Assembly: GCA_965178125.1 (NCBI GenBank)
Contig: OZ237746.1
Coordinates: 744,001 to 808,000 of the forward strand
Direction: 5' to 3'
Origin: Bilabrum cf. latius
Taxonomy: Eukaryota
DNA: 64,000 nucleotides
Shown here: positions 1 to 64,000 of the stretch, in pieces
How positions within the stretch are numbered: the stretch's first letter is position 1
Layout: each line of letters opens with the position of its first letter
The notes under the pieces: generated by a model
Databases searched by the model: none
The model's input: only the letters and a program-made list of their open reading frames with translations
What the model was told of the DNA's origin: nothing
Translations under genes and position numbers: made by a program

Positions 1-2065
1 GCCGCTGCATGCCAAGCATGTCCTCGTGATTCTTTGTGCGTCCACCAACTGTCATTTCACTCATCGACCCGGACTGCATGGCTGCATGCTGCATGCCCTC
101 TAGGATAGCTTCACTCCAGCTGGACCTGGCGATGTCAACATTGAATACTTTGCATGTTGTGCTCGATGCAATTGCAGGCAGTAGAGCCCGCGCGGCAGCT
201 TCCGGGAGTTGTGAATAGGAGTCTAATGTCAGCCGACGCAAGGAAGCAGACTCGGCAAGCAGCCTCGCGACAAAAGGGGCAGACGCAGCAGACACGAGCT
301 CATCCTTCACTTTAATATATTGCAGCGTCGGATGGTGCGTGACAGCCTCGAATAGCACACGACTTTCATCATCTAAGCTTTTGGTTGGCTCAACGCTTAT
401 TGCCAACTCCCGCAGAGTGGTGTTCCTAGCGAGGCCGGCAGCCAGTGGCGCAACACTTTCAGGCTGCAGACCACATGCTAGAATTTCCAATCGGCGAAGA
501 GCAATGCCTGGATTCTCGCCTAGTGCCTTCCCCAATGCAACGGGTGTCTATCCGCCGAGAGCCCATTTATTGTGGCTCAGATTCAGATCTTCTAGCGTGC
601 TGTTCGACTGCAGCCCGACCGCGATTGCATGCCCGCCCTCGCTTCCGACTTTTCCCCCGCTGAGGTTTAGCATGTTGAGAGTGGTGTTGACTGCCAGCGC
701 ATTGCCCAGAGCCACAGCGCCATCATCTCTTATTTTGCTGCCCATCAGCCCAAGTTTCTCCAACACGCACGAGGGCCGGGACAGCCAGAGTGCAATATAT
801 CTGGCCCCATCGGATCCCACGTTGCAGCCTGGCAACAGTAGCTCCCTGAGGCCACTGCCAGCGGTGGGATTGCACTGCAGTAAGTTGTCGATGCCAACAC
901 GAGATATTTCGCAGCGCTCCAGCTGGAGCTTTTTCAGGGAGCATCCTCTTGGCGAAGCAAGCGCTTGCCCGAGCAAGATCGCAAACCCGTCATTAGAGTA
1001 ATCCGAGTCATCTGAGTCGTACCCTCTCGCTACGGTCATATTGGGGTCGTCCGAGTCGGGCATAGGCTCATTAGCCAAATCATAAAATTCATCCCTGTCG
1101 TCCCTGCATGGCTGACGCAATGATTTCTAGTAGGATTGGCTCGCGACAATGTGCAGGCTCTCAAGTCGCAGCGCCCCCGTTGCCGCTCCTTCCCGAATAC
1201 CGCGAGCAAGAGGCACCATGCCAGCAATGCGCCCACGGACCACAACAAGCTACAACTTGCGGAGGGTTGAGTTGGTCGCAAGCGCATGCTCCCATGCCTC
1301 CATCGCATCATCATCAATCCGAATGGTCGCATACTGGATGCTTAGCTCTTCCAACGCATGATTATGCGGTAATGCTTTGGCTATCCTTACACTAGTACTC
1401 GCATCTGTTGGGTTGCGCAAGCTGAGCACTCGCAATGTCTTGTTATATTTTAGCCCTGTGCACATCAAATCCGCAGACCTGGAATACTGACAATCAATGC
1501 TAAGCTCCGTAAGGCATGTGTTGCATGCGAGAGACTGAATCAAATAAATACCCCTCGAAGCTAACGGTAGCAACCCCGGGACTAGCCTTGCCTTAAGCAA
1601 TGAAAAGCATCCATCGGTAGCTTCGGGGCCTGTCTGCGGGGTTTCGTACTCTCCGTCGAAAGACTGCAAACCTGGTCGCTACATAATGGCGGCTGCTAAA
1701 TTGGATCTAACATATGTTTCGCCTCTGCCGCGGGTTACTAGCATATCGGAATCGAGCACGAAACGTCGCAAAGGAGCTCTCGTTTTGGCGAGACTGGTTG
1801 CAAGTACTGAATGACCGCTATCTTGCAGCTCGCATCGTTGAATATAGAATGACTATACAGATTCATTTGTAATAAATGCGTTTCCAAGACAAGCATACTG
1901 TTGTAGCCCCAAGCTCGATCCTGCAACAGAAAGACGTACGAGACTGCTGGACCGTCCAATTGCTTTCGAGAGCGCATCAAGATCTCCATTTAAGGAATTA
2001 AAGTTAATGCACAATCGGCGGCACCCGCTGTTTATCTGGTCGAGAATCCATGACAAATTGTTCAT
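1..2065 (-). CDS. RNI-like leucine-rich-repeat protein, tandem paralog A (3' end runs off the window); TAG read as Gln
   Basis: One frame from ATG 2065 (MNNLSWILDQINSGCRRL) to the window edge, broken only by TAG at 1853, 1679, 1250, 1127 and 548. LxxNxTLxxLxL repeats; colinear with paralogs B and C. Confidence 0.85.
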
Positions 2066-2542
2066 TTCGTCTACAATCTGGTTAAAGTAGTAGATGTGGT
2101 TGAGTGATCCGATCCCATTCGTGTCTGCTCCGATCACTCCCAATCTTCACCCATACGCCCCACCTTAAACCAACTAGGTCTGTGCCCCCCTCATTCTATT
2201 CCCCGAATCAACAAGATTACTTGACCAATCATCTTCTCCGAGGGTCCACTTTTCTTTCACCTGCCTGCCAGTGGTGGAGCATCACACCCCCATCCACGGG
2301 ACGTGGTGTTCCATGATTCATGACCGCCGCAGCGGGGCCGCTCCTGCACATACCTCACTCGGCTGGCGCCATCAACCGCTCACTACTACGCTATGCCTCA
2401 TCTGATCTTATATCCTTCACGGGAACTGCACCCAACGTAGAGCGTCAATCACAGACACCTCATTGCCCTCGCCAGCGGACAGATCCTGTCCATGGCCCGT
2501 CTGGAGCGCTTGTTCATTGGATCCATCGACATTAGTCATGAC

Positions 2543-5500
2543 TCATGATACGGAGCATCCGCATCCGCATCCGCACCCAGGCCCCTATTCTGCTTCAGAG
2601 GTCCCAGTGTCACGCAATGACGCTTCATGCTCGCGTCGCTGTCGCTCCATCTCAGCTGCCCTGGCGTCTCGCAATGACGCTTCATGCTCGCGTCGCTGTC
2701 GCTCCATCTCAGCTGCCCTGGCATCTCGCAATGACGCTTCATGCTCGCGTCGCTGTCGCTCCATCTCAGCTGCCCTGGCGTCACACAACGACGCTTCATG
2801 CTCGCGTCGCTGTCGCTCTATCTCAGCTGCCCTGGCGTCACACAACGACGCTTCATGCTCGCGTCGCTGTCGCTCTATCTCAGCTGCCCTGGCGTCACAC
2901 AACGACGCTTCATGCTCGCGTCGCTGTCGCTCCATCTCAGCTGCCCTGGCGTCACACAACGACGCTTCATGCTCGCGTCGCTGTCGCTCCATCTCAGCTG
3001 CCCCGGCGTCACGCAATGACGCTACATGCTCGCGTCGCTGTCGCTCCATCTCAGCTGCCCTGGCGTCACGCAATACCGCTGCGTCAAGTTTTGTCTCCGA
3101 CTGCCTGGCAATCACCTCCTCCAGCACCTTCACGCACTCATCATGACCGCCCAATCGAGCCGCCTCCAATGGACCCACCATCGCCCCACCCTCCACCTCG
3201 CCCTTCATCTCCAGCCCACCCGCCAACCGACCCAGCCTCAGCCGCTTCCCCAGCTCCAACGGCCGACCCTCACTCGCAGCCCGGAACACCCTGCCTGCGT
3301 CCCTCTTGGCCTCCACCGCCCGGCGCCATCGAAGCACCTGACTCTTTCGATCAGCCTCCTCCAGCGCCAGCGCCTCCCCGCACAGACCAGCCAATCCAGG
3401 ATAGTCTATTTCCATTGCCCACCTCTGCACATCCCTGACTCGATCCAAGCATCTACCATCTCGTAGCGCATACCGTAACATAGGCTGCTCCTCCACCACA
3501 GGCACCCCATCCCGGTCCCTCTCCACCTCATCATACTCGGCCTTACACGCGTCTCCCATGCCCAGCACCAGAGACACCATCGCCATCGTGCCCGGGTCCC
3601 TCCCGCCCTCCCCCATGGGCCTGCCCATGGACCCCCGGATGGTGTCCATGCAGCTGGCCACGAATGCAGCCACTTGCGCCAGGTCCACGGCCCCGCCCTC
3701 AGCGGCTAGGTGCATGGCGGCCACGGCGCGGCCAGCGAGCACTCGGGGCTTGGGACTAGTGGTAGGTATAGATGCAGCAGTGCTTGGCCCAGGGTCGCTG
3801 GAATGTGCAATCTCTGTCTCTAGCTTTTGGTCCATCCACTTCCTGACGACCTTGTGCCGCTGCATGCCAAGCATTTTCTTGCCGTTTTTCGCGCGTCCAC
3901 CAACTGTCATTTCACTCATTGACCCGGACTGCATGGCTGCCTGCTGCATGCCCTCCAGGATAGCGTCACTCCATCTAGGCAAGACGAAGCCTACACTGAA
4001 TGCTTTGCATGTTGTGCTCGATGCAATTGCAGGCAAGAGATCTAATGCTACAGTTTCCGGAAGTCGTGAATAGGAGTCTAATGTCAGCCGACGCAAGGAA
4101 GCAGACTCGGAAAGCAGCCTCGCGAAGAATGGAGCAGATGCGGCAGACACGAGCTCATCCTACACTTTTATCTATTGCAGCGTGGGATGCCGTGCAGCAG
4201 CCTCAAATAGCACACAGCCTTCGTCATCTGTACTGTCACTAAGATCTACGTTTATTGCCAACTCCCGCAGAGTGGTGTTCCTAGCGATACCTACAGCCAG
4301 TGGCACGACACCCGCAGGCTGCAGGCCACATGATAGAATATCCAATCGGCGAAGAGCAATGCGTGGATTCTCGCCTAGTGCCTTCCCCAATGCAACGGGA
4401 GTCTATCCGCCGAGAGCTCGCCCTGTGCAACTCAGACCCAGCTCCTGCAGCGTGCTGTTCGACTGCAGCCCTACGGCGATTGCATGCCCACCCCCGCTCC
4501 CGAATTGTGCAACGCTGAGGTTCAGCATTTTTAGTGTGCTGTTGACTGCTAGCGCATTGCCCAAAGCCACAGCGCCATCATCTCTAATTCTGCTGCCTAT
4601 CAGCACGAGTTTCTCCAACATGCAGGAGGGCCGGGACAGCTGAGCTGCGATCTGTGTGGCCCCATCTGTCGGCACGTTGCAGCCTAGCAACAGTAGCTCT
4701 CTGAGGCCACTGCCAGCGGTGGGATTGCACTGCAGTAAGCTGTCAAATCCATCGCGAGAAATCTCGCAGTGTCGCAAGTGGAGCTTTCTGAGCGAGCATC
4801 CTCGAGGACAAGCAAGTGCCTCGCCGAGCAATGCTGCAAACTGCTCATTCAAGTAATCGGAATCCCCAATGTAGTCATCCGAGTTATCCGAGTCATCTGG
4901 AGTCCGTTGGGCCTGATACCAGGCCTAAACAAAGTCATTCAAGTCACCCGAGCCATCGGAATCATCCGAGCCATCCGAGCCATCCGAGCCATCCGAGCCA
5001 TCCGAGCCATCCGAGCCATCCGAGCCATCCGAGCCATCCGAGCCTACAGAGTCAGTGGCGCTATCCGAGTCATCCTAGACGCGCTTGCTCGCGTCGATGC
5101 GCAGACTCTCAAGCTTCAACCTCCCGCCCATTGCCCCTTCCCGAATGCCGCGAGCGAGAGGCACCATATCGGCAACGCTCTTATGGACCACGTCCAGCTT
5201 CAGCGTGCGGAGGGTCGAGTTGGTTGCAAGCGCATGCCCCCACGCTTCCATTGAAGCACCATGCATGGTCGCACCCTGGATGTTCAGCTCTTCCAATGCA
5301 TGGTTATACAATAATGCTCTAGATCCACTAACAGCATTGCTCGCGCCTTTCCAATTGCATAAGAATAGTCTGCGCAATGCCTTGTTCGCCTGTATGCTCG
5401 CGCACATGGACGCCGCAGACTTGGAATCGTGGCAGTCGATTCCCAGCTCCGTTAGACATGTATTGCTTGCGAGTAGCTGAATCAAAGAAGCACTCCTCTT

Positions 5501-5998
5501 TGCTATAAGTGGCTTTCCTGGGAGTAGTCTTGCCTTCAGCAACGACAAGGATCCATCAGCAGCTGTGCGGCCTGCCAGTAAGCTTCTGTTCCTGACGCTG
5601 TATTCTCCGCCGAAAGACTGCAAACCTGAGCGCTACAGAATGGCGGCTGATATGTTGTATCTAACGAGTGCTTCACCGTCGCAAGCTTTGAGCACGAAAC
5701 GGCGCAGAGGAGCTTTCGATTTCGAGAGGCTGCCCGCAAGCACAGCATGCCCGCTTTCTTGCAGTTTGCATCGGTTAATTTCGAGAGACTGGATAGTCAT
5801 ATTTGTAAGAAGTGCGTTACCAAGGCAAGCATACTGCTTCAGCCCCAACCTAGATCCAGTGACTTCGAGACAAGAAAGAGTAGACCACCCCATCACTTTC
5901 GAGAGCACATCAAGATCTCCTGAAAAGGTATCAAAGTTGATGCATAGGCGCCTGCATCCGCTCTTAATCTAGAGAAGAATTAATGAGGAATAGTCCAT
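2543..5998 (-). CDS. RNI-like LRR protein, paralog B (~1151 aa): LRRs, acidic (GSD)n insert, shared ankyrin-like module, 19-aa coiled-coil repeats, C-terminal CaaX-like CSVS
   Basis: ATG 5998 to TGA 2543 in one frame with 8 in-frame TAG (5969, 5633, 5075, 4925, 4403, 4172, 4160, 2585). It joins five pieces of the ORF track. Confidence 0.85.
2609..3075 (-). repeat. Coding tandem repeat, 57-bp unit x ~8 (ARAAEMERQRREHEASLRD), predicted coiled coil
   Basis: Near-identical units are directly visible. Confidence 0.95.
4964..5043 (-). repeat. Coding 9-bp repeat (atccgagcc)n encoding (GSD)n
   Basis: About 9 visible copies inside the acidic insert of paralog B. Confidence 0.9.
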
Positions 5999-6438
5999 TG
6001 CGTCAAATACTTGCGCAGAAGCGCGAAGGATCTAGGCTACCGGTACCTCGAAAAATGAATGGAGGACGCTGCCCCTCACTGCCAAAATTAAAGGCGGGTC
6101 GAGTCCTGCTCAAGACTAGTGGTGATCTCCCTACTTTATCATCAGCCTGTGGTCGAGTGATCCGATCCCATCCGGAGCTACTCCGCTCACTCCCAATCTT
6201 CACCCACATCGGATGCCACACCGCTGCCTGCCGGCCCGGTCTGCTGTCTCCCTTCTTCTTTCGCTTGCGTTCTTGCATGAGCAGTGGCAGGATCCCGGCA
6301 CCCTTGCTTGCCCTCCGACGACGACAGACTGTGGCATACAATGGTAGGCCAGTAGAAATAGTGAGTATCCCACCCTTCTCTTGTGTGCGATACTCACTAT
6401 TTCTGCGCGCGCCACGCCATATCATCATTGTGGGCGCA

Positions 6439-9129
6439 TCAGCCAATCCCAATCACCTCCTCCAGCACCTTCACGCACTCTTCGTGGCCGCCCAGACGAG
6501 CCGCCTCCAATGGACCCACCATCGCCCCACCCTACACCTCGCCCTTCATCTCCAGCCCGCCCGCCAACCGACCCAGCCTCAGCCGCTTCCCCAGCTCCAA
6601 CGGCCGACCCTCACTCGCAGCCCGGAACACCCTGCCTGCGTCCCTCTTGGCCTCCACTGCCCTGCGCCATCGAAGCACATGCCTCCGTCGATCAGTCTCC
6701 TCCAGCGCAAGCGTCTCTCCGCACAGACCAGCCAATCCAGGATAGTCTATTTCCATTGCCCACCGCTGCACGTCCCTGACTCGATCTAAGCATCTACCAT
6801 CTCGTAGCGCATACCGTAACATCGGCAGCTCCTCCACCACAGGCACCCCATCCCGGTCCCTCTCCACCTCATCATACTCGGCCTGACACGCGTCTCCCAT
6901 GCCCAGCACCAGAGATACCATCGCCATCGTGCCGGGGTCCCTGCCGCCCTCCCCCACGCCCACGGGCCTGCCCATGGACCCCCGGATGGTGTCCATGCAG
7001 CTGGCCACGAATGCAGCCACTTGTGCCAGGTCCACGGCCCCACCCTCAGCGGCTAGGTGCATGGCGGCCACGGCGCGGCCAGCGAGCACTCGGGGCTTGG
7101 GACTAGTGGTAGGTATAGATGCGGCAGTGCTTGGCCCAGGGTCGCTGGAATGTGCAACATCTGTCTCTAGCTGCTGGTCCATCCACCTCCTGACGACCAT
7201 GTGCCGATGCAAGCCGAGCATGTCCTCGTGAATCTTTGTGCGTCCACCAACTGTCATTTCACTCATCGACCCGGACTGCACGGCTGCCTGGTACATGCCC
7301 TGCACAATGGATTTACTCCATCCGGACCCTACGAAGCCTACTTCGAATACTTTGCATGTTCTGCTCGATGCAATCGCAGGCAGTAGAGCCCGCGCGGCAG
7401 CTTCCGGGAGTCGTGAATTGAAAACCATCAGCCGACGCAAAGATGCAGACTCGGAAAGCAGCCTCGCGACAAAAGGAGCAGATGCGGCAGATACAAGAGC
7501 GTCCCGCACTTGCATCCACTGCAGCGTAGGATGCCGTGCAGCAGCCTCAAATAGCACACCAGCTTCATAATCAGTTTTCTCACTAAGCTCTACGCTTATT
7601 GATAACTCGCGCAGAGTTGTGTTCCCAGCGAGGCCGGCAGCCAGAGGCACAACACCCTCGGGCTGCAAACCACATGATGCAATATCCAATCGACGAAGAG
7701 CAATGCCTGGATTCTCGCCTAGTGCCCTCCCCAGTGCAACCGGTGTCTATCCGCCGAGAGCCCGCCCTGTCCAATTCAGATCCAGCTCCTGCAGCGTGCT
7801 GTTCGACTGCAGCCCGACTGCGATTGCATGCCCACCCTTGCTTCCAATGCTTCCCATCATCTCCTCCGGCAAGCAGAGATCTTTGAGGGTGCTATTGACT
7901 GCCAGCGCATCGCCCAGAGCCATAGCACCATCGTCTTCAATTTTGCAGTCTATCAGTACAAGTTTCTCCAACACGCACGCGGGCAGGGACAGCCGAGCTG
8001 CAATCAATTTGGCCCCATCCGAGTCCACGTTGCAGTCTGACAGGAATAGCTCCCTGAGACCACTACCAGCGGAGCTGTGCCCCCGCAGTAGGTTGTCAAA
8101 TCCATCGCGAGAAATCTCGCAGTGTCGCAAGTGGAGCTTTCTGAGCGAGCATCCTCGAGGACAAGCAAGTGCTTCGCCGAGCACCGTCACAAACTCATCT
8201 AATTGTTGCGTGCTCGCGCAAATGTGCAGACTCTCAAGTCGCAGCGCCCCCTTCATCGCTCCTTCCCGAATGCCACGAGCAAGAGGCACCATACCAGTCG
8301 TGCTGCCATACATAGAATCCAGCTTTAGCTTGCGGAGGGTCGAGTTGGTCGCAAGCGTCTGCCCCCATGCCTCCATTAAAGCACCATTCATTGTCAGCCC
8401 TTCGATGCTCAGCTCTTCCAACGTATGGTTATGCGGCAATACTCTGGCTAAACTCATCAGCGTGTTCTCGTCTGTTGCATCCCATAAGCTGAGCCGGCGC
8501 AATGCATTGTTCGCTTTCAGGCCTCTGCAGAAGGACTCCGCTGACTTGGACTCGTGGCAGTCGATGCTCAGCTCCGTAAGGCATGTGTTGCATGAGAGAG
8601 ACCGAATCAAAGAAACGCCCTTTATTGCTAGAGGTGGCGACCCCGGCACTAGCTTTGCCTTTAGCAATGAAAAGGATCCATCAGCAGCCTCGAGGCCTTG
8701 GCTTATCTCACTGTCACCGTACTCTCCGTCGAAAGACTGCACACCTGATCGCTACAGAATGGCAGCTGCTGTTTTGAAGCTATCATGATTCCCATCAGAC
8801 AATTCTTTGCAGTCCTTGAACACGAAACGGCGCAAAGGAGCTCTCGGTTTTGCAAGGCTGTCCGTAAGAACTGAATGACCGTCCTCCTGCAGCTTGCATC
8901 GTTGAACGTCGAGAGACTATATGGACTCATTTTTAAGCAACGCGCTACCAACACAAGCATACTGTCTCGGCCCCAAGCTTGATCTTTTGACTTCAAGAAT
9001 AGAGATGCTCTTAGACAGTCCAATCGCTTCCTAGAGCACATCGAGATCTCCTGAAAATGCATCAAAGTTGATGCACAAGCGCCTGCACTTCTGATTTATT
9101 TTGTCAATTATAAGAGACGAGTATTCCAT
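6439..9129 (-). CDS. RNI-like LRR protein, paralog C (~896 aa), ending just after the shared ankyrin-like module
   Basis: ATG 9129 (MEYSSLIIDKINQKCRRL) to TGA 6439, with in-frame TAG at 9031, 8917, 8752, 7747 and 6532. Highly similar to A and B. Confidence 0.85.
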
Positions 9130-9282
9130 TACGTCTTTGCACTACACAGAAGTAGAGAACCTGCCAGGAAGGAAGCGCCAGTGCAACAGGGTTCGATTCG
9201 GCGCCGCGGGTTCGGCTGAGTTCGCTGATGAGAGCGAGAATCGCTGGCACATCAACACTTCTCTTGGGTGGATTCCTTGCAG

Positions 9283-12200
9283 ATGTAGGCATCAACTCTG
9301 CCAATTTACGGCGCAATAGCCCCTTTGGTAGTGTCTGCAGCGATTGCAGGGGCATGCATGGCAGCTGGTAAACCTGAAACCATGATTGCTGTCGCTGCCG
9401 TGCTGGGCGGAGCACTCGGTTGCCTTGGTGCTGGTGGCTTCTTCTCGGCCGCAATGCTTTGCATCGCAGCAGTCTGTGCGTACATTTGGTCTCCAATAGA
9501 TACTTCGTACTTCATGCGGCCATCCTGGCCTCTTGCATACGCGGTGTGCGCACTGGCGGCTGGTTTCGCGGCGGGAGCTGTGGGAGCTTTCGCGGACGCC
9601 GTTGCAGCAACCATCCAAGACGGGGCGGTAGCGGGAGGAACCGGCTTCGCTGCGCCGGCACCATGCGAGAAAGCTGCAAACCTGAGATCTCCTGCCGCTG
9701 CAGTTCGCAAAGAAGCCGTGTCAACCATCCCCGAGCAGACCCAAGTGCCTCCCACCTCTTTTGCTGACGTGGTGATCGTCGGAGCCGGGACCGCTGGGGC
9801 TTCGCTCGCGGCTCGCCTCGCAAGGGACGGGAGGAAAGTTGCAGTTGTTGAGAGCCACATGCAGCTGGAGGTGAGCCATCATTTTCCCGGCCGAATTCCG
9901 CGTGTTGCAACACTGCTCTCTTCGCGTCAAGCGCAAAGTCGCTTCCATGAGCATTACAGCTCGGTGACCGCCGTGCAAGTCGACTTACACCAATCCTTGT
10001 AGTGCATTGTACAGGTTTGGTACCGTTGCGACTCCCAAAGCCCACCCGTTTGATGGGCTGCTGACCGCCGATGCCACACTGTGCAGTTCCGTTGGGGCCT
10101 CTTCGTCTGCCATTGGAGTCCGCTTGCAATTCGCCCATATCCAATCACATGCATTTCTCCAAAATACTCCAGTCCCACCGCATTCGCATTTGATTCATTC
10201 GCAGGCGCGCATCGTGGGCGAGCTCATGCAGCCTGGCGGCGTGCGCTCCCTCGAGCGCATGGGGCTGGCCGACGCATGCAAGGACGGCAGGGCCAGGAGC
10301 GTGCGCGTGGACGGGTACGTCGTCGTGCCCAAAGCAACGGACGCGGGAATCCGCGACGAGTCCATGGCCAAGCAGATCGCCGAGAAGGAGCAGCCCGAGG
10401 GCGACGGGTTCGCCAGAAGGGACGCGCGCATCGAGGGGGCTGTCCTCCTCAAGTACCCCAGCACGGACCCGGAGGGCGGGGCAAGGCACTTTGGATTCGG
10501 AGCCCAGGCGGCCGACGAGGCCGGGGCCGTGGAGGCGCAGTTTGGCGAGGAGACCCGCCGCGTCAACGCCGCCCTCGACCTGGCCAGAGCGGCGGGCGTG
10601 GGCGCCTAGTCCGAGGAGAAGGAGCTGGACGTGGGCGATGGGCTGACGGACGCGCAGTCAGGGGCGCTTGCGGGGCTGGGCGGGGCCGGGGGCAACGGGA
10701 CCGGGACCCTCGTCCGAACGTCGGCCTCTGTTCCCCAGGGAACAAGCCAGTGGGGCGTGGACCCCATGCCCAGGGGCCGGTCGTTCCACAACCACCGGTT
10801 CGTGGCGGGGCTGAGGAGGCTGGCCTTCAGGGAACAGAACGTGCGGCTGTGCGTGGGGCGGGCGAGGGATGTCCTGCGATGCGGTGGGGAGGGTGACGAG
10901 GTGGCCAAAGCGGCGGCTGCCGGGGACGCTCGGAGGGTCAGCGATCTGCTGGTGGAGGCAGAGGAGGAGGCGCTGGGGCGGGCGCTCGGGGAGGAGGAGA
11001 AGCAAGTGGCGGAGCGGGTGGCGAGGCAGATGACGAGTGCCGCATCCAAGGCCTAGGGAACTAGCGGTAGGGGTGGTCAAACCGGCGAGGGGCGCGCGGT
11101 TGGGATCCGCTGGGTGCCGCACGGGGAGAGCAAGCCAAGGACCGTGCACGCCCCCCTTGTGGTCATCGCCGACGGGATGTTCTCGGGTCTCAGGCGGAAT
11201 GTGACGAGTGCGAAGCCTAGGCTGGTGAGCCATTTCGTGGGCCTGGTGATGCACCACCCCCCCATGGAATCCCCCCTCCCTTACAGGCACAGGGGGCACG
11301 TGTGCCTCACGGAGCCCACCCCCACGCTGGCCTACCAGATCAGCCCGTGCGCCACCCGCCTGCTGGTGGACTGTCCCACCCTCCTGCCCTCTGATGACGG
11401 GCTGTACCTCCCACTGGACGGAGAGGGAGAAGCAGAAGGGGAGCGCAAAGAGGACGGCGAAGGCGAAGAGGAGAAGAAGGACGAAGACGAGGAGGAGGAG
11501 CAAGAGCAGGAGGCCCAGGGAACAACGGACGGTGTTCCCCCGGGTGCTGTGAAGGACCTCAAGCCCGGCACGAGGGTGAAGAAGGTGGTCAAAGACAGCA
11601 CGCTGGCCGCCTACATCCGCTAGCACACGCTCCCGCAGCTCCCCGCGGGCTCCCTGCGAGAGGCAGCCAGGCGCGCCCTGGACACCCAGGTGCCCCAGCC
11701 GTGCGGGAACAGGTACCTGCCCGTGGCCCCCGAGGCCGAGGAGGACGGCCGCGGCAACGGGTCCACCGGCGTGGTGCTGCTGGGGGATGCATGGAACATG
11801 AGGCATCCGCTCACCGGCGGGGGCATGACGGTGGCACTCAAGGACACGGAGGCGCTCGCCGATGCGTTGCGCGGCGCCACTCTGGAGGAGCTGCGGAACC
11901 AGGGAGTGGAGGACCTCGGCGAGGAGCAGGCCCGGAAAGTGTCCGTTGACCTGGGCAGCCCCGCGGCCCTTGACGCTGCTTTGGACGGCTGGAAGGCCAG
12001 GCGCACCACGCACGCCTCCACGGTTAATGTGCTTGCCAACGCACTGTACGACGTGTTTAGCGTGCCTGAAGAGAAGGAGACCAAGTCGGGTGGGTCAGGG
12101 AACAAGGGGTCAGGGAACAAGCTGGACGTCGCGCTACAGGACCCCGCCACCCGCAAGGGTCTACGGGACGCGTGCCTGAACTACCTGGGCATGGGCGGGG

Positions 12201-12544
12201 CGTGTTCCGCCGGCCCCGTGCATCTCCTCGCTGCACTGACGCCATCCCCCGGCGTGCTCACTGCGCACTTCTTCTCGGTTGCCTTCAAGGCAGTGGGCGA
12301 TTCCGTGCTGCCCGTGCCCACCCCCTCCTCGGTTCGGCAGGCGTACATGACCGTGTGGGCCGCGTGCAGGATCGTGATGCCGCTGCTGGCGGATGAGAGA
12401 GCCACGCCGCTGGCCTGGCCGGCTGTGCAGACCGCCGTGAACCTCTTGTTCCCCTGGCGGGACGCGCACGTCAGTGCCGTGCCCAAGAGGAGTAGGAGGG
12501 GGAGGGTGGGGGTGGGGGTGGGGAAGAAGAAGGCAGTGGCATGA
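9283..12544 (+). CDS. SQLE: Squalene epoxidase (monooxygenase), ~975 aa; exons 9283-9870 and 10205-12544
   Basis: Motifs DVVIVGAGTAG, RIVGELMQPGG, GRSFHNHRF, APLVVIADGMFS, SHFVGL, LLGDAWNMRHPLTGGGMTVALKD, TVNVLANALY. GTGAGC...GCAG phase-0 intron. In-frame TAG at 9286, 10607, 11054 and 11621. The start codon is inferred. Confidence 0.93.
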
Positions 12545-12751
12545 GGTGAAGAATTCGGGGGTGTGGGGGGAGGTGGTGCTGGCGAGTGTGTGAAGCCCAC
12601 GCCGGTGAGTCTTCGTTCTAGCTAGGAACGATGCGCTAGTGGGTTGGTGGGTGGTGGACGGTAGATTTGCCGTATGGGCATGGGGGCTCTGGGGCCTTGT
12701 GCGACTGTGATGCTCATTGTCTATGGTGACCAACTGCGGTCACGATGGCTG

Positions 12752-13851: not shown

Positions 13852-14020
13852 CACGCAGCTGGGAAGGCGAGGCGCGCCGCCCGCTTCGCTCCGGACCCGC
13901 TCCAAAATCACATGATGCGCAACTCACTCACGAAAGGAGCCACTATCTCTCATCGCCATCACCACCATCGATAAACGGCGACGAATGCCCAAAAAGCAAG
14001 CAATCGCTCGCTCCCTCTCT

Positions 14021-53500: not shown

Positions 53501-56500
53501 TGGTGCAGCCCGCACCTGAGCCTCCACTCGGCGTAAGATCGGCTGAGGAAGTACGACTGGGCCGTGGCGCTGCTTTGGCCACCCTCCACGGCCCGCGTGC
53601 TCCTGGACTGGGTCCCATCGCCCCCTAGCGCCCCGCCTGCACCGCCGCTGCTACCGCCGCTGCCGCCGCTCTAGCCACCGCCCCCGATGCCGCCAGCCGT
53701 GCGCCTGTGGTGCCTGCCCAGAGCAGCTGCAGCCCTGGCCGCCGCCCCGCTTTTGCCACCCCCTTCCCGCTTTGCCCGCCTCAGCTGCTCCTGCAGCAGC
53801 TTGTTCTTCCAGGCGTGCCCGATGGTGGATCCAACGCTGAACCCCATAGCCGCCACCTGAGCCCTGTACGCCTTGGGAAAAAAGAAAGCGGGCTGCAAGG
53901 GGTCCACGCTCCGGGCATCGAACCTGTGCTCCTGCTCGCTGAGAGGAAAATTCACCTGAATCCGGACCATGGGAGGATCGGCCGCGAGGATCCGGAGCGC
54001 GGTCTATGCCTCTGGGTGCTTGTCTTTGTCCACCTTCGGGGCCACTTGTTCCCTGCAATACCGCAGCCCATCCACCAGATACCCCAGGCACTTTTGCCTT
54101 AGCAGCCCGTCAAAATCAGCGGCTGCATCGGCCGGGTGCCTCCTTGAAGGCCCCAGGCACCTCTCGTTCGTCCTCCGGTCCTGCATGCCCGCCCTCCATC
54201 TCGTGCTGCTGTGGCTGTTCGTACCCCTGTACAGCTGCTGGGAAGGTGCCAGACCACTGACGTCGGGCCACACGCACATGGACCGGAAGACCCGCATGTG
54301 TTCGGGGGACCCGCCCGTGTGCAGCCGGTTGCCGCCTTGGCCACCCCTCGCTGCGGCCAGCTGGCAGGCGGCGGCGTATCTCTAGAGATCCGTTGAGTAC
54401 CGGATCGCCTCTTTGGCCACCCTGTCCACTCGGCTACCGGTGGAATCGGATGATGACGAGTGCCCGCTCTTGCTGCTGCTTCCCGCACCACCACCACCTG
54501 CCTCTGCCGGTGTCTCTGTCTCTGTCTCTTGCATGGGTGGCTAAGCAGGTGCCGATGAGGAAGACGAAGACGAAGACGAAGATGCCGAGGTTGCTACCGA
54601 TGGCGGTGAGGATGACGCCGCCGCAGCTGACCCATCCCCTGCACTCGGCTCCGAATCCCCCCTGCCTTCCTGCCCAGCCTCCATCAGCCTAGCCAGCACC
54701 TGGAACACAACGGACCTGCTTGTGTCCAGAGTGCCAGTCGCACCACCGTGGGATGCATTAGCCTGCGAAGAAACAGTCTTTGCTGCGGTGGGAACCCCGT
54801 TACCGTTGCCGGCCACAGATTGCGCGGCGCCATTCTATATTCCGCTGCCAACTCCACCGGCAGACACCATGGGCGTCTGCCCCGCGCCCGCCTCCCCCTT
54901 CCCGCTCGTCACACCACCCTCACTCGTCACACCCGCCAGCCTGGCCTTCAGCACGTTCCTCGCCCTCACGGACTCCCTAGGGCCCATCATGAGGGCGAGG
55001 GCGATTCCCTCGGGCACGGCCACCTGGCTATCCAGCAACGGTGGGGGGCCCGAGTCGCTGACGATGGCCGCGGGGGGGAGGCCTAAATGCCTCCACCGCC
55101 GGACAGTTTCGTCCAGCTGCTGGGAGGGCGCCCCGGAGGTGGTGCCCCCGCCCAGAGGGCCTGCCCCAGCCCCCCCGCCGCTGCGGCTGACTCGCGTGGC
55201 GGTCGCTCCGGCACCCGCACCGGCACCCGCCGATGAAGATGAAGATCGGCCGCCCGACGAGCGGTCGCGGTTCCGAGAATCGGAGCCTGTTCTCCCCCCG
55301 CCAGCCTTAAGCCCCACCCCCCTGAGAGGAGCCACGAACTGCCCGTGCCCCAGCTCCGTGTATAGGGGGGGTGCCCTGGCCGCCCGCGCCATCGACGGGA
55401 GGAGCGCAGGCGGCACTGCGGAACCTGGTTGCGCGGCGCCGGTTCCGCCGTCATCACCCTCCCCCGGTCGGAGAGCTCCCGCGGCCCGCAGCAGCCCCCG
55501 CAGCACGCTCGGTCCCAAAGGAAGGTTCACTGCGAACCTCAGGTCAGCCGCGGCCGTGACCACGTTCTTGCGGAGCGAGAACATCTTGCCGCCGATTGCA
55601 ACCGAATCGCGGGTTCCGACCACGCCCGCCGTGAAATCCATGGTGTTGGCGGGCCAGAGAGGCCGCAGGCACAGGGGTAGTGACGTCAGCGCCACGTCCG
55701 CGATCGGATCAAACGGGCGGATGTCGACTTGACCGGCGCCGGGTGGTGACCCTGCGGAACCAGAGCTGGAGGAGGACGATGAGGATGAGGACGATGACGA
55801 CGACGAGGACGACGATGCCGGTGGTCCTGCAGCTCCTCCAATTGCTTTCCCCTGCGGATCGCCACTACCGTGCCCTGCACCCGCCAGCGCCGCCTCTTTC
55901 TCAGCCTCTCGGAGCCGCAGCACCTTCGCCTGATAGGACTCCGGGTGGATCGCAATGGAGTTTGTGGCGAACGTTCTGTAGGGTCCGGGAACGACCGGTC
56001 TCCTGATTCCGGTTTGGGCGGGGTCCGACTGCCAGGGCGCCTTTGGCTCCACGAGGGGCGGCTGCGGGCGGGCAGGAGCCAGTGCCCCGGTGCCCTTGCC
56101 TCCGGCCATCTTGCCAGACAGCAGGTCCCTGCCTCTGTAGAAGCGGGTCATGCAGTCCGCCACCCACGCCGCCCGCGCCATCGATGTGAGCGTCCCGCGG
56201 ACGTGCCTCATCTTGCCGGCCAGCCAGAGGGCGGCTCTGAAGTTCGACCCGCTTCGGTTGAGCGTCACGCCGCGGAGCAGCTTCGGGAAAAACTTCCAGT
56301 CGGTGTGCTCCTTGCTGGCTCCGCGCTGGTCCAGCCAGTCGAGAATGACCGCGATCGAAGGCGGCGGCTGCGGGAACTCGCCCAGCTCGATGGGAGCATC
56401 GGTGTCAAGACTGTAGCAGAGCCGCCTGGATCGCTCCACGTCATCCGTTGATGGCCAGTTCACATCTTCCGCAAGTGCCTTGTCGTATTTCTCCTTCCAG

Positions 56501-56676
56501 TCGCGGCCGAAATGCTGCTACGCTTGGTACGCGGGAATGTAGTCCAGCTTTGGCACCCGTGGAACAGGCGGTTGGGCATTAGCAGGGGCCCCAGCTACCT
56601 CTGACTTAGCTGAAGACTATGTCTTGGCGCTCTTCGAGGATGCGGATGCTTCCACGGGAGCCTGCCCGGATGCCAT
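50578..56676 (-). CDS. Large PHD-finger protein (~2032 aa)
   Basis: One frame from ATG 56676 to TGA 50578 with about 15 in-frame TAG. C4HC3 motif CAGCSAGGNVVLCDSCPCVWHTYC...GDWRCPLC at about 51710-51840. (GQ)n tail. Confidence 0.85.
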
Positions 56677-56814
56677 GCTCGAGAGGCTCGGCAGCTGCGC
56701 AAAATGGCGATGCGATCCCGACGGGCCGAGGAGGTTGAGGAAGCGCGAAGGGTCAATGCGATCCAGTCATATGCTCAACAAGCAGTATAAAGAGAGTATT
56801 CTGTGCAGGCCGCG

Positions 56815-57709: not shown

Positions 57710-57805
57710 ACTCTCTACATAAAGGCCCACCCAACAGCCTGATTCACCTCCTTGCAGACTCTCTACATAAAGGCCCACCCAACGGTCTGATTCACCTCCT
57801 TGCAG
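57710..57805. repeat. 48-bp tandem duplication overlapping the stop codon and 3' end of the upstream minus-strand gene
   Basis: actctctacataaaggcccacccaac(a/g)g(c/t)ctgattcacctccttgcag occurs twice. Confidence 0.85.
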
Positions 57806-60800
57806 CCGTGCCACCCACCTCCTTCCCCTCCTTAATCAGCCGAGACAGACGCGCCTCGGCCCCCCGCAGCGCTCCGATCGCAGCCCCTTCCCATCGCCGG
57901 TGCAACGCGCAGCTGCCCCTCGACCGGAGGCAGCAGGCGGCCTGCATTTCCTGTCTGCAGCGGTCGTGGCAGGGGATCGTCACCCGCTCCACGGCGTCCA
58001 GCCCATCATCTTCATCTTCATCTTCATCTTCATCTTCATCTTCTTCTTCTTCTTCTTCATCATCTTCTTTGTCTTGTCCATCTTTGCCCCTATCGACGGC
58101 TGCAGCGCCTGCACTGCCGCTCGCCCCACCAGCTACAGCGCCTGCACTGCCGCTCGCCCCACCAGCTACAGCGCCTGCACTGCCGCTCGCCCCACCAGCT
58201 ACAGCGCCTGCACTGCCGCTCGCCCCACCAGCTACAGCGCCTGCACTGCCGCTCGCCCCACCAGCTACAGCGCCTGCACTGCCGCTCGCCCCACCAGCTA
58301 CAGCGCCTGCACTGCCGCTCGCCCCACCAGCTACAGCGCCTGCACTGCCGCTCGCCCCACCAGCTACAGCGCCTGCACTGCCGCTCGCCCCACCAGCTAC
58401 AGCGCCTGCACTGCCGCTCGCCCCACCAGCTACAGCGCCTGCACTGCCGCTCGCCACTGTGCCCGCCTCCTGCCCATCCCCCTCACTCGTCACACCGATC
58501 CCGGCGAGGAACAGCAGCGCGCGCCCCACGAGACCCAGGGCAGGCCCGTCCACCAGCTCCCGCGCCAGCGCCCACCGGCGGGCGCACCTGGATCCGCCGG
58601 CGGCCCAGAGACGTTTCGCGATGTTATCAGCTGATCCAGTCCTAGGGAACAACCCAGTCCTAGGGAACAACCCGGCATCGTCACTCGTCACACATGCAGC
58701 GAGCAGGGCGGGGGACCAGCCGCAGGGCCGCCGGGAGACACGCGACTAGTGGTCCGAGTTTCGGCTCCGAATCCCGAACGGGGCCCCGATCCATTCCTCC
58801 GCAACGGAACCAGCGCCGCGCAGCACAGATCGGTGCAAACCGTCTGCAACTCCCGCGGCCCTTCCAGAGGCGGAGGCTGATGCATCGGTGCCCTTGCCCC
58901 TGCCGCTGCCTCTGCCCCTTATCCTACCCCTGCCCCTACCACTCTCCATTCCCTATAAACTCCCATCCCCCAGTCCCACGCGAGCCGGAGACACGTTGAT
59001 TCCCAAACCGGAACCAGAGCCACTCGTCACACCCCTCATCGGGATCGACATCGGGAAGGGCTCCTCGGGCGCCTTCACCCTGCCCACCCTCCCCGCTATT
59101 TTGGCTCCGAATCGATCCGACCCCCAGGGCAGGCAGGCCTTCCGACAGGGAACAATCACGGGAGCCCCGGCCCATGATGCCGCCGCCAGCAGCCCCTCGT
59201 CCTCCTGCCCCTCCATACCCGATGATGCCTCGCCGATCCCCGATGATGCCTCGCCGATCCCCGATGGTGGCTCGTCCCTTGCCTTCGCTCCACCGTCACC
59301 GTCCTCCATCAGTGGCTGATTCTGCTTCTCCTCCTCCTGCGATCCTCCATTGTTCCCTGGGACCCACCCGTCGGTCAGGTCGTCCAGCAGCAGCAGGATG
59401 GAGCTCCGGGCGCATCGCACTGCGACCAGCACGTCAATCGCGGCCCCAAGCCTGTCAGCCTCCACATCGGCATCGGCATCGGCATCGCGCTCATGCGCTT
59501 GCGCATGCACAGAGCCATCGTGCTGCTTCTCCTGCTGCTTCTCCTGCCGCTGATGCTGCTGCCTCTCTACCATCGCTGCCGCCCCGATCGCACTCGTCAC
59601 ACCACTCATAGCCCCCGCTCCCTGCATCGCCGAGGAACCGCTCCCCTGTCCCGATAGTGCAGGCAAATCTGACAACGGTTCCCCAGATTGTTCCCCAGAT
59701 TGTTCCCCGGCCCCGTGCCTCCGCATCCTGGACCTCAAGACCTCTCGCGCGCATCGCACGCCGCAGTACCGTGACTATTCCCTCCTCGGCCGGTTGCAAC
59801 CGGGGCGCAGGCATGCCACGTTGTTCCCTGGGACAACCATCCCACCGTGTGCCCCCCCCTTCCGCAGGTGCCTCATGGGGACACCCTCCAGTTCACATTG
59901 CTCCTCCTCCTCCTCACCCCTGCCACTCCCCTCCATCGGCACCTGCGACCGTGATGATGACGAGTGCGATGATGACGAGTGCGATGAGGCAAGGGTCGCC
60001 TCCTGTTTCGACTAAACGACAGCCCCCCCCTAGCCCCTCGCGAGCTAGCCCCCCGTGTCGCATTCGTCACACCCAGCGGCGCCGGCCCCGGTTCTGGCGA
60101 TCGCTCGCGAGAACCAGTCGGGCTCGGCGCCGCGCATCGGGCGAGGCAAACCCTGGTGTGACGAGCGCGACTCGGGGTCGGCAGGGGCCAGCAGCATGGC
60201 CCTGCCCAAAGACGCGCGCCCCACCCTCCTTCCCATGCCCGCGCCCCACCAGACTGCTCCTGCGACTGCCACGGATGGTGGTGGTGATGATGATGATGAT
60301 GATGGTGCACCTATGGTACGAGGCACCAGCACGGGCATCCGGCCAGCAACACTCGTCACACGCAACGAGCCGTGGGTGAGCAACCGCGCAGCCGATCCCG
60401 CCCCGCCCCCCATCCCCACATCCACCGCCTGCTGGGGGATCGTCACCAGCTCACGCCAGGCCCGCACGGCTGGGCCCCGGCTGTACGGGCCCGCACCAAG
60501 CCGCTCCCGCCACGCCGCAATTGCCCGATTTCTGGCTCCGGTTCCCTCCCACAGGTCCCCCAAGAGATCGAGTTCCCTGATCCTACCGGCAGCATCATCG
60601 TCATCACCACCGTCGTCGTCACACCAGCTCCAAGGGGCCGGGTCTTGCCCAATGCCAGCCTCCGATCCACCTGTGGACTGAGCCGAGGCAGTGCCTTCGT
60701 TTGCCGCTGCTTTCGTGCGCTTGCCCTTGGCCTTGCCTTTCTTGCTGCCCTTCCCCTTGTCTTTCTTGCTACCCTCCTCCTCGCCCTTGCCCCTGCCCTG

Positions 60801-63800
60801 CTCCTCCTCCTCGTCCTCATGCATCCCCTTCGATTTGCTGCACATGCTGGCCAGCAGAAGCAGAACAGCGGGGCTGGCCAGGCTCAGCCGAGCGATGGCG
60901 CGGGCCGGCACAGACTGCCAACCACCCGCACTCGTCACACCGCCATCGGATCCCGCATGCACCTCGTGCGCTTGCTGTGACGACGAGAACACGTACTCCA
61001 GCACCAGCATCGGCCCCTGCTCCCCCCCACCTTTCCCGTCCCCCACGTTGCCCACGTCACCCCCCGCATCCACCCGCACCCGCGTCCCGTCCCCCCCCGT
61101 GCCCTTCCGCCGCAGCCCCCTCACGGCCTCCCTCGCCATCCACGCGGCCTCGCCCAGCGCCACTGGGAGCATCGTCCTCGGCTCGTAGTACCTGTAGGCT
61201 CCGAATCTGTTCCCTGGGAGGTTGTTCCCTGTACCCGGCTGTTCTGACATGCCAGAACCACTCTTATCGCGCTACACTGCATCTCCGTCGCCGCTGTTCC
61301 CCAGGGGGGGGCCCGACTGCAGCGGCGCAGTCGCGTGTGCTTCGTCCCGAATGCGGGCGTACGCGAGCAGCTCGGAAACCGTGGGACCCGGAGCCGGAAA
61401 TACCTCTCCCACACCGGGGCTCCTCTGCTAGCCCCCGCCGCTTTGACCACCCCCCTGCATCGCCGCCCCCATGGTCTGCATGCTGCCCACGCGCAGCAGC
61501 TGATCACCCTCGGAAGCGGCCGTGCTAGCCGCCCTGCTCGCCGCATCGTCCTCCATCGGCAACGAGCCCGAGCACGGTACTAGCGCCCCACGTGTGCCAG
61601 TGCTGGTACCCGTACCCGTACCTGTGCCGGTACTGAGGATCGGGAGTCGTTCGTTGGCGGAAATGAGCGGGGCAGCAAGTCCACCGGTGGATTGGGGCTG
61701 CGGCTGGTCACGCGCCCCGGCATGCGATTTCTTGGGGCTGCTAGTGGTGGGGCTGCCAGTGGTGGGGCCGGGAGGGCCGGTGGGGCCGCTCGCAGTACCT
61801 GATGGCCCGCCGTGCGCACCACCAGCATTGCCGATGCCGCTGCCGCTGTCGATGCCGCTGCTGCTGCTGCGACCAGATTTTGTTCCCAGAGACGTGGCTG
61901 CACCCGATCCACCGGTAGATATTTGCACTGGTGCTTCCGCCACCCGTGGAGCTTCAGCACCAGCACCAGCACCAGCACCAGCACCAGCACCCGCACCAGC
62001 AGCCCCAGCTCCCCGCAGCACCGCCCACAGCACCCTCGCGACAGCCCCCGGCTGCACCCACACCACCCCCTGGTCACGGAGCAGGGAACAAATCGGCTCC
62101 GAGTCCGTGTCCCACCCACAGGCCCGAAAGGCCTCCTCGGCCGCTGTAGCGGAGCACAGGCTCGCACCGAACATCCTGCAGCAGGACTCGAGTGCGGGAA
62201 GGGCCGTGCGGATGAGCCGGAGGCCAGCGGCATTGGCGGTGGAGACGTTCTTGGCCTTGCATGCCTGGACCAAAGCAGCCCAGGCGTCCCTCAGCCGGTC
62301 TCCCAGGCTGAGTGCAGCCAGCGAGGAGTTGTCCACCACCTGGTCCATGTGACGAATGCGGCGCAAGGAGATGCCGAAGGCGGCCAGAGCGCCGTGAAGC
62401 TGGCCGGGGCTGGGGCCTGTACCGGCGCCCGCTCCAGCAAGCCCCAAGGAGACATGGGCCGCCCCAGGCGCCCTGCCCCCCCTCGCGGCGACGACGGTGG
62501 GGGGGAGAGGGCCCGAGGTTGCAACCACCGATCCACCGGTTGCAACCTCGGCGCGCCCGTCCACTCCCGTCCGCACCACCCGCGGGCCCAGGCCGTCGAG
62601 GCCGGGCACGTCGCCCAGGATCGCCTAGTAGGCCCTGTCCGGGGATACCGGTGTGACGAGTGCGATGGGTGGGGACTGGGATGACTCGGAGCCGCTCCCG
62701 TGGTGGCGATCCAGCAAGGCTTGTAGCCGCTGTCGCACGGCCGCAGCTCTCTCCACAGAGCCGTTGAGTTCCATGAGATGCGGCTCTTTGGAATCTTGCT
62801 CTGAGGGGGGCTCCATGGGTCCACCGGTGGATTGGCTACTGCTGTTCCCTCCGACTGCCTGGCCCCCCGCAGCCGAAGCTCTCCCAGCAAGGAACCTGGA
62901 AATACCCCCCGGCTCTAGGATCCCCTGCAGCGACTCGAGCACACACCCGTCCGACCTGTCCAGCACCTGCCCCTGCAGCGCAGCGCCGGCCTCTGGCCTT
63001 CCCAGCATGGCCAGCTGGCTCTCGAGCTGCTCCGCGCGGGGACTGATCCGACCCAGGGGACGGTCCAGCCAGGGAACATGTGTTCCCTGGGGCGGGCCGA
63101 CCGCACTCGTCACACCGGCTGCCTCCATCTGCACGTGCGTGATGTCGAGCAGCCGGATGCGTCGCATGCCACCGCGCATGCGTGGTACGGTGCAGCGGCC
63201 CACCCGCTTGGCAATGGTTCGGACCAGGCTAGATGCCGCTCCGACGGAGATGACCGCGCGCGCCTGTGCGGTTCTGAAGCTGCCACCGTCCGCGCTTGGA
63301 TGCAGTACCATCCAGCACGCTCTCTCCAGGGAGTGCACCAGCGAACGTTCGCCCACGAGCACGTGCCCCGCCAGCTCCAGGTCCCCTGGGAGCACCTGGA
63401 AGGCTGCCTCCCACAGCCGGGGTGCGTGGGAGTCCAGGCCACTGGCACTGGCACTAGGACCCGGAGCCGATCCACCGGTGGATTCCGCCCCGGGGGTCCC
63501 CGCGGATCCGGATCCGGAATTGGATCCGGAGCCGGTGCCGATGCCGGTGCTGTGCTTTCCTGAGGGCCTCACAAGCAGCAGCAGCACCCGCGCCACAGAG
63601 TCCACCAGGATCTCCCGGACGCTTGCCCCCCCACGGGGTTCCGGTCTAGCGGCGGACAGAGTTGCAGCCAGACGATCCAGGTTGCCATGTGCGTGCGCAT
63701 TAGGCCCTCCCCCCGCATTAGGCCCTCCCCCCGCCTGCGCCTCACTGCTGTGCATCTCCATGGCCCGCATGAATAGATCCACCAGCTGCGACATCCTCGC

Positions 63801-64000
63801 GATCACGTCGGCCGCCCACCGTTTCCTAAACTCCCGCCTCTCGTGTTCCCTGAGGGCGTCCCGGTGCACGCGCCAACGAGCCTAGCCACCGGTTGCAACC
63901 GCCCATTCCGTCACCGCGATGCAGTAGCTGTCCAGGGAACACAGGCTGCACTTGGGCTAGGAATGGGTCCTAGATGATGACGATGACGATGATGACGATG
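57792..64000 (-). CDS. Very large hypothetical protein (>2000 aa, 5' end outside the window) with a C-x2-PGC...SRYC-x3-C zinc-binding-like motif
   Basis: Six ORF-track pieces share one frame and are joined across about 11 TAG, ending in TGA 57792. Motif CLRPGCNRPRRE(TAG)SRYCGVRC at about 59750-59815. Confidence 0.75.
58104..58455 (-). repeat. Coding minisatellite, 33-bp unit x ~10.5 (ASGSAGAVAGG)
   Basis: Perfect tandem copies are visible. Confidence 0.95.

Follow-up and report, generated by a model that had tools for sequence, protein, structure and literature searches.

How are the three classical stop codons read in the nuclear genes of Bilabrum cf. latius, and in particular, does UAG end genes or specify an amino acid? 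The question is raised by a stretch of 64,000 nucleotides of its genome (contig OZ237746.1 of assembly GCA_965178125.1, positions 744,001 to 808,000; hereafter the window, numbered from its first letter), for which a first-pass annotation, made from the letters alone, had proposed that UAG encodes Gln, that UGA is the stop and that UAA was not reassigned along with UAG. We found that UAG is a sense codon in the window and that UGA is a terminator in use for its genes; these two proposals, and the separate behaviour of UAA, are backed by the reading-frame statistics, by transcript contigs, by conservation between paralogues and by related metagenome contigs. The account which in our view is likely to be correct is that the window is nuclear DNA of a GC-rich, intron-poor protist in which UAG is read as an amino acid, most probably Gln, UGA terminates and UAA has not followed UAG, and that this code is common to related organisms represented in metagenomes.

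The GC content of the window is 56–68%, and its genes lie on both strands, mostly without introns. With TAG taken as sense, 12 non-overlapping long frames contain 73 TAG, no TGA and no TAA in 14,981 in-phase codons, compared with 183 TAG, 79 TAA and 505 TGA in the other two phases of the same stretches. The exons of an ankyrin-repeat gene contribute a further six TAG, giving a window total of about 79, in line with the roughly 80 counted by hand in the first-pass annotation; its statement that at least 11 genes are involved also held, because 11 of the 12 long frames carry TAG, the exception being that at 47953–49941 (minus strand). The longest stop-to-stop frame measures 880 amino acids (aa) in the standard code and again 880 aa when TAA is made sense, but 2,391 aa when TAG is; the longest TAG-sense frames are of 2,391, 2,069, 2,063, 1,814 and 1,189 aa, followed by shorter ones. 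The largest gene frame (40553–47725, plus strand) covers 7,173 nt, as expected from the frames of up to 7 kb without TGA or TAA reported earlier, and an open frame of its 2,390 codons has a chance probability of approximately 1e-20 at the off-phase rate of TGA plus TAA, approximately 1.9% per codon. The nine longest TAG-sense frames gain nothing when TAA is also read as sense; they are therefore bounded by TGA on both sides, and for these frames the zero count of TAA is not circular.

Twelve gene ends could be placed in the window, those of 11 complete frames and that of a spliced cathepsin-like gene, and all 12 are TGA. The earlier observation that every end is TGA was thus borne out, although the 14 ends then counted shrank to the 12 that are placeable. 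When the related contigs described below are included, 28 ends are TGA and one is TAA (n = 29), and TAG is needed by none, with the proviso, which limits all of these counts, that frames were defined by reading through TAG, so that a terminal TAG would escape notice. Independent C-terminal landmarks exist only in the acyl-CoA oxidase (ACOX) of the window, in the form of a final ...AKL, and in a HECT ligase on the related contig L100; both reach TGA.

The genes for squalene epoxidase (SQLE), glutathione synthetase (GSS) and ACOX, which the first-pass annotation had named, were all confirmed, Pfam families and solved structures both giving matches. The SQLE frame at 9968–12544 (plus strand) matches Pfam SE (1.7e-56) and human SQLE (6c6n); its three TAG (10607, 11054 and 11621) all precede the C-terminal portion of that domain, and it ends in TGA. 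The ACOX gene at 23018–26110 (minus strand), which matches the Pfam ACOX domains and PDB entries 1w07 and 2fon, has TAG at 26005, 25927, 24727, 23623, 23611 and 23332. Those at residues 36 and 62 precede every catalytic domain, and it is downstream of all six that the protein closes with ...AKL directly before TGA, an ending which we take to be a peroxisomal signal of the PTS1 type. In the GSS frame at 26561–28750 (plus strand; Pfam GSH_synth_ATP, 6.2e-65; PDB 5oes), TAG occurs at 27179, 28292 and 28739 before the terminal TGA; those at residues 207 and 578 precede the ATP-binding end, and that at 28739 stands three codons before TGA, 21 residues beyond the end of the homologues. Each of the three proteins contains several structure-matching blocks, all in one frame, with low-complexity inserts between them. 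These in-frame inserts, of 50–150 residues and without counterpart in the homologues, account for the lengths of the proteins, which are 1.5–2 times the usual.

Four of the nine public runs that contain the stretch (X1, X5, X7 and X8) were aligned to 9900–28800; they give assembled contigs rather than reads, and only part of the contig pieces is listed. One gene in this stretch is that of the papain family (cathepsin-like) at 13610–16760 (minus strand), delimited by contig joints and translation, where X1 is colinear with the window DNA, without joints, and X5, X7 and X8 have a contig with exact joints at 14722–14872, 15265–15460 and 16029–16216 and a fourth at approximately 16244–16507. Read on the minus strand, the segments that are left out are bounded by GT..AG, which shows that spliced RNA is present in these runs. 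On the other side of the balance, none of the runs is registered as RNA and X5 is labelled 'probably DNA', so it is the spliced contigs alone that speak for RNA. In these transcripts UAG is retained: the listed X5 contigs cover SQLE at 10698–12478, the frame P0003 at 16770–20982, ACOX at 23216–26092 and GSS at 26621–28674 with no differing letter and no joint, and they span 17 of the 20 TAG in those four genes, all 17 being unchanged and unspliced, a result that bears on the proposed check for TAG removed by splicing or editing.

The papain-family gene, named from its translation and not from Pfam, encodes two CGSCW protease domains behind a signal-peptide-like start and stops at TGA 14021–14023. 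It has no TAG in approximately 560 codons, and its Gln codons are CAG (26) and CAA (one). Its contig depth in X5 is 372, compared with 10–66 for the other listed contigs, and high depth together with no TAG fits the behaviour of TAG as a rare codon avoided in highly expressed genes. The same runs touch on two further points of gene structure. The GSS exon starts near 26621, the first 50 or so residues of the homologues are missing from the frame, and in X5 and X7 the 5′ 313–320 nt or so of the GSS transcript contigs do not come from the DNA directly upstream; the missing residues and the unmatched 5′ sequence indicate an upstream exon. Between SQLE and the protease gene, short X7 and X8 contigs cover 12563–13135, one of which lacks 1 nt at 12941, and may represent an unannotated transcript or an untranslated region.

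The TAG pattern recurs in metagenome contigs that share with the window a 12-nt word, GTGTGACGAGTG, of which the window has 37 copies against 0.01 expected. A search for places in metagenome contigs where the word occurs twice within 30 nt yielded at least 120 loci, many of them unrelated simple tandem repeats, and on 16 of these loci we hand-picked 22 frames for being long only with TAG as sense, for carrying the word in frame and for having low-complexity inserts. They amount to 18,676 codons with 139 TAG and no TAA; 16 end in TGA, one in TAA and five at contig edges. The TAA belongs to a C2H2 zinc-finger protein with five TAG (6077–6082 of L106, minus strand), and the codon that follows it is TGA. 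Also among the 22 are an SMC protein (14 TAG), a HECT ligase (30 TAG), GH39 iduronidase-like and GH59 galactocerebrosidase-like enzymes, an abhydrolase, and NUDIX, SET, FSH1, WD40 and TPT-type transporter frames. The HECT ligase, on L100, aligns to the last residues of HUWE1 downstream of its 30 TAG and then meets TGA. The GC content at third codon positions (GC3) of the related frames, 0.54–0.71, is lower than that of the window, for which reason we took the contigs to come from a related organism and not from the same one; among the listed loci, neither overlap with the window nor orthologues of its genes were found. Because the same TAG pattern occurs in contigs of a related organism, the code is a trait of the lineage. 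Two double-word matches came from viral contigs, neither with the TAG pattern. An all-against-all codon table of the loci was discarded, as it was dominated by non-coding phases of the tandem repeats.

The word, specific to the lineage and dispersed over its genes, is a peculiarity in addition to the code. Written as GTGTGACGAG(T/C)G, it is preceded by G in 72% of copies, and its flanks are not conserved. The 37 sites in the window lie between 18756 and 63115, with none in 1–18700 or 28000–44500, and the window plus 17 contigs assigned to the lineage hold 95 copies in 158 kb, approximately 0.6 per kb; the word is also present in L002, L014, L019, L023, L037, L039, L059, L061, L092, L100, L115, L118 and others. 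Its copies fall within coding frames, in either orientation and in all phases but the one that would give an in-frame TGA, and encode the recurring peptides GVTS and CDEC/CDEW.

The findings above have to be weighed against three other ways of accounting for in-frame TAG. Were UAA and UAG both Gln codons (UAR = Gln), with TAA merely rare through high GC, the CAA/CAG bias would predict 21.6 in-frame TAA in the window (CAA 22%) and 74.3 in the related frames (CAA 33%), whereas none was seen in the 14,981 and 18,676 codons, respectively (Poisson P of 4e-10 and 6e-33). The first-pass annotation had seen no in-frame TAA and had named its frequent occurrence as the result that would overturn the proposal; there is none in the window and none in 33,657 in-frame codons of the two sets together. 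TAA is indeed scarce in every phase (79 off-phase, against 505 TGA), and UGA is practically the sole stop, as it is in UAR = Gln organisms, so some appeal of this explanation remains, but the counts leave it scarcely credible: UAA is not a sense codon, and the UAR = Gln code is excluded. A context-dependent UAG, sense inside genes and a stop near the end of the mRNA, as in Condylostoma, seems very unlikely. Frames defined by read-through would overlook a terminal TAG, and the GSS TAG three codons before TGA, 21 residues past the end of the homologues, is just where such a stop might be sought; however, the ...AKL of ACOX and the C-terminus of the HECT ligase require translation to TGA, and none of the 29 placed ends needs TAG. 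Finally, TAG might not be translated at all, lying in introns or pseudogenes or arising from editing or assembly errors. The organism does have GT..AG introns, and many TAG fall in low-complexity inserts without counterpart in homologues. Yet in SQLE, ACOX and GSS a single frame free of TGA and TAA links all aligned blocks through the inserts, the transcript contigs are colinear across 17 TAG without joints or differing letters, 73 TAG stand against zero other stops in phase, TAG is conserved among the paralogues described below and the pattern recurs in independent metagenome contigs. This last explanation is already contradicted by the present data, and we give it practically no chance.

As to UAA as a terminator, it ends none of the 12 placed genes in the window and one of 17 in the related contigs, where base composition predicts 13.5% and 17%, respectively. 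An avoidance of UAA as a stop was considered and set aside, being not significant (P of approximately 0.18 in each set).

Given that UAG is sense, Gln is the best-supported amino acid; the assignment is not proven and is the least secure element of the account, but we consider it probable. Summed BLOSUM62-based log-likelihoods over 14 TAG columns aligned to homologues were −36.45 for Q, −38.56 for E, −38.80 for R, −40.10 for K and −43.63 for L, and in a control on canonical GSS and ACOX columns the method returned the right residue (Q, E, L, R or K) in 97–99% of 500 resamples of 14. With 15 columns added, 11 from leucine-rich-repeat (LRR) paralogues, two from ankyrin copies and two from close relatives, the 29 columns gave −74.9 for Q, −80.5 for E, −80.6 for R, −80.8 for K and −94.7 for L, which puts Q ahead of E, R and K by approximately 5.6–5.9 natural-log units. 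Q thus ranks first, but some conserved columns show Leu or Glu at TAG. At three conserved sites the homologues have Q: GH39 154 (human α-L-iduronidase), GH39 227 (Q in both human α-L-iduronidase and a second GH39 structure) and the HECT column adjoining the catalytic Cys, where HUWE1 has Q and pub2 has R. Other columns are mixed, with R, E, T, D, Q and K at GSS 207, A, T and S at ACOX 62, and Y, Y, L and K at abhydrolase 175.

The LRR (RNI-like) paralogues occupy the start of the window on the minus strand. Paralogue A (2–2146; Pfam LRR_6; five TAG) runs off the window start, and paralogues B (2543–6109, C-terminal repeat region; nine TAG) and C (6439–9291; six TAG), both recognized by Pfam and by paralogue alignment, end in TGA. 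The three are 63–73% identical. All of them have TAG at two columns, and another three columns pair it with CAG or CAA; its remaining partners are AAG, AAA, TCG, GAG, TAT, TGG, CGG, GGC, TTA and GCG. In addition, one TAG (50631) of the frame P0002 lies inside a (GGG CAG)n Gly-Gln repeat.

A different kind of evidence came from P0003, a 1,813-aa frame at 17425–22866 (plus strand) with eight TAG and a TGA end, which is restricted to the lineage except for distant homologues. Its C-terminal 854 residues, compared with 1.84 billion representative proteins, matched six short gene calls that are 68–100% identical, in the manner of one protein cut into pieces by standard-code gene calling. Four of the fragments stop immediately before a TAG (P0174) or a CAG (P0175, P0177 and P0178) of the window sequence. 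As P0175 and P0177 lie on contigs of 5–9 kb, their breaks are in-frame stops and not contig ends, and P0172 picks up again at the Met that follows the end of P0177, the two contigs being equally long. The alignment is uncertain at the ends of P0172 and P0173, where the window sequence has GTT and AAA. In all, three breaks in the relatives' fragments coincide with a window CAG and none with GAG or AAG, and with Gln codons making up 4.7% of P0003, three of five ends on CAG would have a chance of approximately 1e-3 and two of four approximately 1e-2. Moreover, P0175 carries Q at one window TAG. The simplest reading of these comparisons would be that TAG and CAG exchange synonymously between close relatives.

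Several observations weigh against Gln, or at least against placing too much confidence in it. On the 14 homologue columns, Q leads E by only 2.1 natural-log units, and most TAG of SQLE, ACOX and GSS lie in variable or inserted segments and for that reason say little about residue identity. The paralogue columns are confounded, since CAG, AAG and GAG are each one mutation from TAG. In the P0003 comparison we infer that the stop of the relatives is TAG; P0178 is on a contig of 1,760 nt and may end at the contig edge, and P0190, a fragment from a closer relative, has S at a window TAG. Individual columns also disagree: Glu leads at ACOX 36 (14 of 45) and aligns at abhydrolase 172 (E, E, E and A in the four distinct sequences shown) and at GH59 72, Leu aligns at GH39 122, and the best-conserved TAG column of all, P0003 1042, has L in seven, F in two and M in one of 10 distant homologues, with no Q. 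This last TAG (window 20548) falls in a Leu/Met/Phe column that includes a Cafeteria protein, and a 91%-identical relative has Gln there; either the lineage underwent a specific Leu-to-Gln change, or the column is a warning about the Gln assignment.

Two other assignments of UAG draw on these columns. That it codes for Glu, or for Lys or Arg, is unlikely but is the more serious of the two: beside the Glu columns just listed, Arg leads at ACOX 927 (27 of 47) and aligns at SMC 51 (R and L in two homologues), the 14 columns alone put Q no more than 2.1 log units ahead of E and 2.4 ahead of R, and UAG or UAR as Glu has been reported for other protists. What tips the balance towards Gln is the gap of approximately 5.6–5.9 log units over 29 columns, the three Q matches at conserved sites (two in GH39 and one in HECT), the fragments that break three times at CAG and never at GAG or AAG, the Q of P0175 and the TAG within the Gly-Gln repeat. 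Leu, the meaning of UAG in the rhizarian exLh and some phyllopharyngean ciliates, best explains two of the 14 columns, P0003 1042 (L, M or F in all 10 distant homologues) and GH39 122, and appears in one of the two SMC homologues at residue 51. It is nevertheless 7.2 log units below Q on the 14 homologue columns and 19.8 below on the 29; the LRR paralogues never pair TAG with TTG or CTG, GSS 207 and ACOX 927 are polar columns, and at abhydrolase 200 TAG takes the place of X, a polar residue, in the nucleophile motif G-X-S-X-G (D, D, D and G in the homologues shown). We therefore regard Leu as extremely improbable.

Decoding of UAG as Gln would probably involve a tRNA whose anticodon is CUA, most likely a derivative of tRNA-Gln(CUG), and an eRF1 that has lost recognition of UAG and so leaves the codon free to be read. 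Both elements are proposed because described UAG reassignments serve as an analogy (PMC5304391 and PMC11687900). Neither component was seen: a tRNA gene scan of the window found none, and hence no tRNA(CUA); a scan of the listed loci found only a tRNA-Ser(GGA), on L048, outside the contigs assigned to the lineage; and no eRF1 gene was recognized in any of the scanned frames of the window and the loci. Rfam gave no match in the window or in 18 of the loci. One joint reading of the results goes further: no earlier nuclear code change would be known from a lineage of stramenopile-like, GC-rich flagellates, and the change would be seen while still under way, with eRF1 recognizing UGA only, UAG captured by tRNA-Gln(CUA) and UAA, neither decoded nor terminating, effectively unassigned, driven out by GC pressure. 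We consider this reading speculative and probably wrong in its full form, but if UAA is effectively unassigned, the organism would illustrate, in a living lineage, how the disappearance of a codon can lead towards UAR = Gln codes.

The remainder of the window carries further long frames. An ankyrin-repeat gene at 30000–40343 (plus strand) consists of approximately 14 repeat exons, with six TAG and a period of approximately 402–419 bp, and a terminal frame (38790–40343) with three TAG and a TGA end. The repeat exons belong to a tandem array (30000–38900, plus strand) of approximately 20 units of 399–451 bp, of which approximately 14 have an ankyrin-like coding segment; judged from translation, the remainder of each unit looks intronic. 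By eye, the tail of the terminal frame resembles the C-termini of LRR paralogues B and C. P0001 (40553–47725, plus strand; 2,390 aa; five TAG; TGA end) has no family match, and no homologue was found for its C-terminal 574 residues; Pfam searches with eight segments of the large frames gave nothing significant. Three minus-strand frames follow, each ending in TGA: a 662-aa frame at 47953–49941 with no TAG and a GC3 of 0.82; P0002 at 50578–56766, of 2,062 aa, with 14 TAG and a weak PHD-finger match below the Pfam cut-off; and a 2,068-aa frame at 57792–63998, with 11 TAG, which runs off the window end.

The position of the organism was approached through its proteins. The best homologues of GSS that align with a substantial part of it reach 28–36% identity, and oomycetes, brown algae and dinoflagellates head the list; those of ACOX come from mixed taxa. 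No close relative was found by GSS or ACOX search in the length range searched, the best matches being 28–53% identical, although genes of relatives cut at TAG by standard-code calling would fall under those length limits. A GSS tree offers no placement, the branch that leads to the query being very long (2.66). Among the P0003 homologues the only species-level name is Cafeteria roenbergensis, a bicosoecid with a genome of approximately 70% GC that was annotated with the standard nuclear code (PMC6972860); this one name is a weak hint that the window organism may lie near the stramenopiles. A ciliate seems unlikely to us, given the high GC and the length and colinearity of this chromosome-type DNA. 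Wherever it belongs, standard-code gene calling fragments its proteins, as the database fragments of P0003 show, so that in public collections of metagenomes and transcriptomes its genes are concealed or wrongly annotated.

Changes in which UAG and UAA are uncoupled were long thought not to occur, and no more than a handful of lineages are so far known to have them, mostly AT-rich and mostly ciliates. The UAR = Gln code (NCBI table 6) is found in many ciliates, diplomonads, oxymonads and some green algae. The window organism resembles table 6 organisms in that UGA is in practice the only working stop and UAG is, most probably, read as Gln, but UAA is a frequent sense codon there and occurs zero times in 33,657 codons here. 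Iotanema spirale, a fornicate, is an anaerobe, whereas squalene epoxidase and acyl-CoA oxidase, both of which need oxygen, are encoded in the window, at 56–68% GC, and suggest an aerobic lifestyle. In Iotanema, UAG probably encodes Gln, and UAA and UGA are kept as stops (PMC5304391); the two organisms are alike in that only UAG is reassigned, probably to Gln, and UAA does not occur in frame. UAG does not end genes in Iotanema, and none of the placed ends here needs it, but the Iotanema ends are 104 UAA and 15 UGA (PMC5304391), compared with 28 TGA and one TAA in the window and related contigs. The view that a change of UAG only is essentially limited to Iotanema, which the first-pass annotation had come close to taking, is out of date, as further cases have been published in exLh (PMC5304391), in phyllopharyngean ciliates (PMC11687900) and in another ciliate, in which UAA and UAG code for different amino acids.

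Among the phyllopharyngeans, Hartmannula sinica and Trochilia petrani use UAG for Gln and an uncultivated clade uses it for Leu, with suppressor tRNA genes found in two of the UAG = Leu genomes (PMC11687900). They share with the window organism the reassignment of UAG alone, with independent origins (PMC11687900), and differ from it in that UGA is a stop in use here. The rhizarian exLh, in which UAG appears at conserved Leu columns and the stops are 56 UAA and 15 UGA (PMC5304391), is likewise a non-ciliate protist with a UAG-only change that is known only from the data sets of other organisms; here, however, Leu fits 19.8 log units worse than Gln. In the literature searched we found neither a UAG-only code in a GC-rich non-ciliate nor a nuclear code change in a stramenopile, although papers beyond it may describe one. 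In the described UAG-only cases UAA is the main stop, whereas UGA ends 28 of the 29 placed genes here, a dominance that fits base composition. A GC-rich organism with UGA as its working stop therefore tests whether the preference for UAA elsewhere reflects mechanism or base composition, and it raises the question of how eRF1 can cease to recognize UAG, with recognition of UAA either retained or lost as well. The type of code itself is known, from Iotanema and two phyllopharyngean ciliates, and the window adds a new lineage to the few in which UAG alone has changed.

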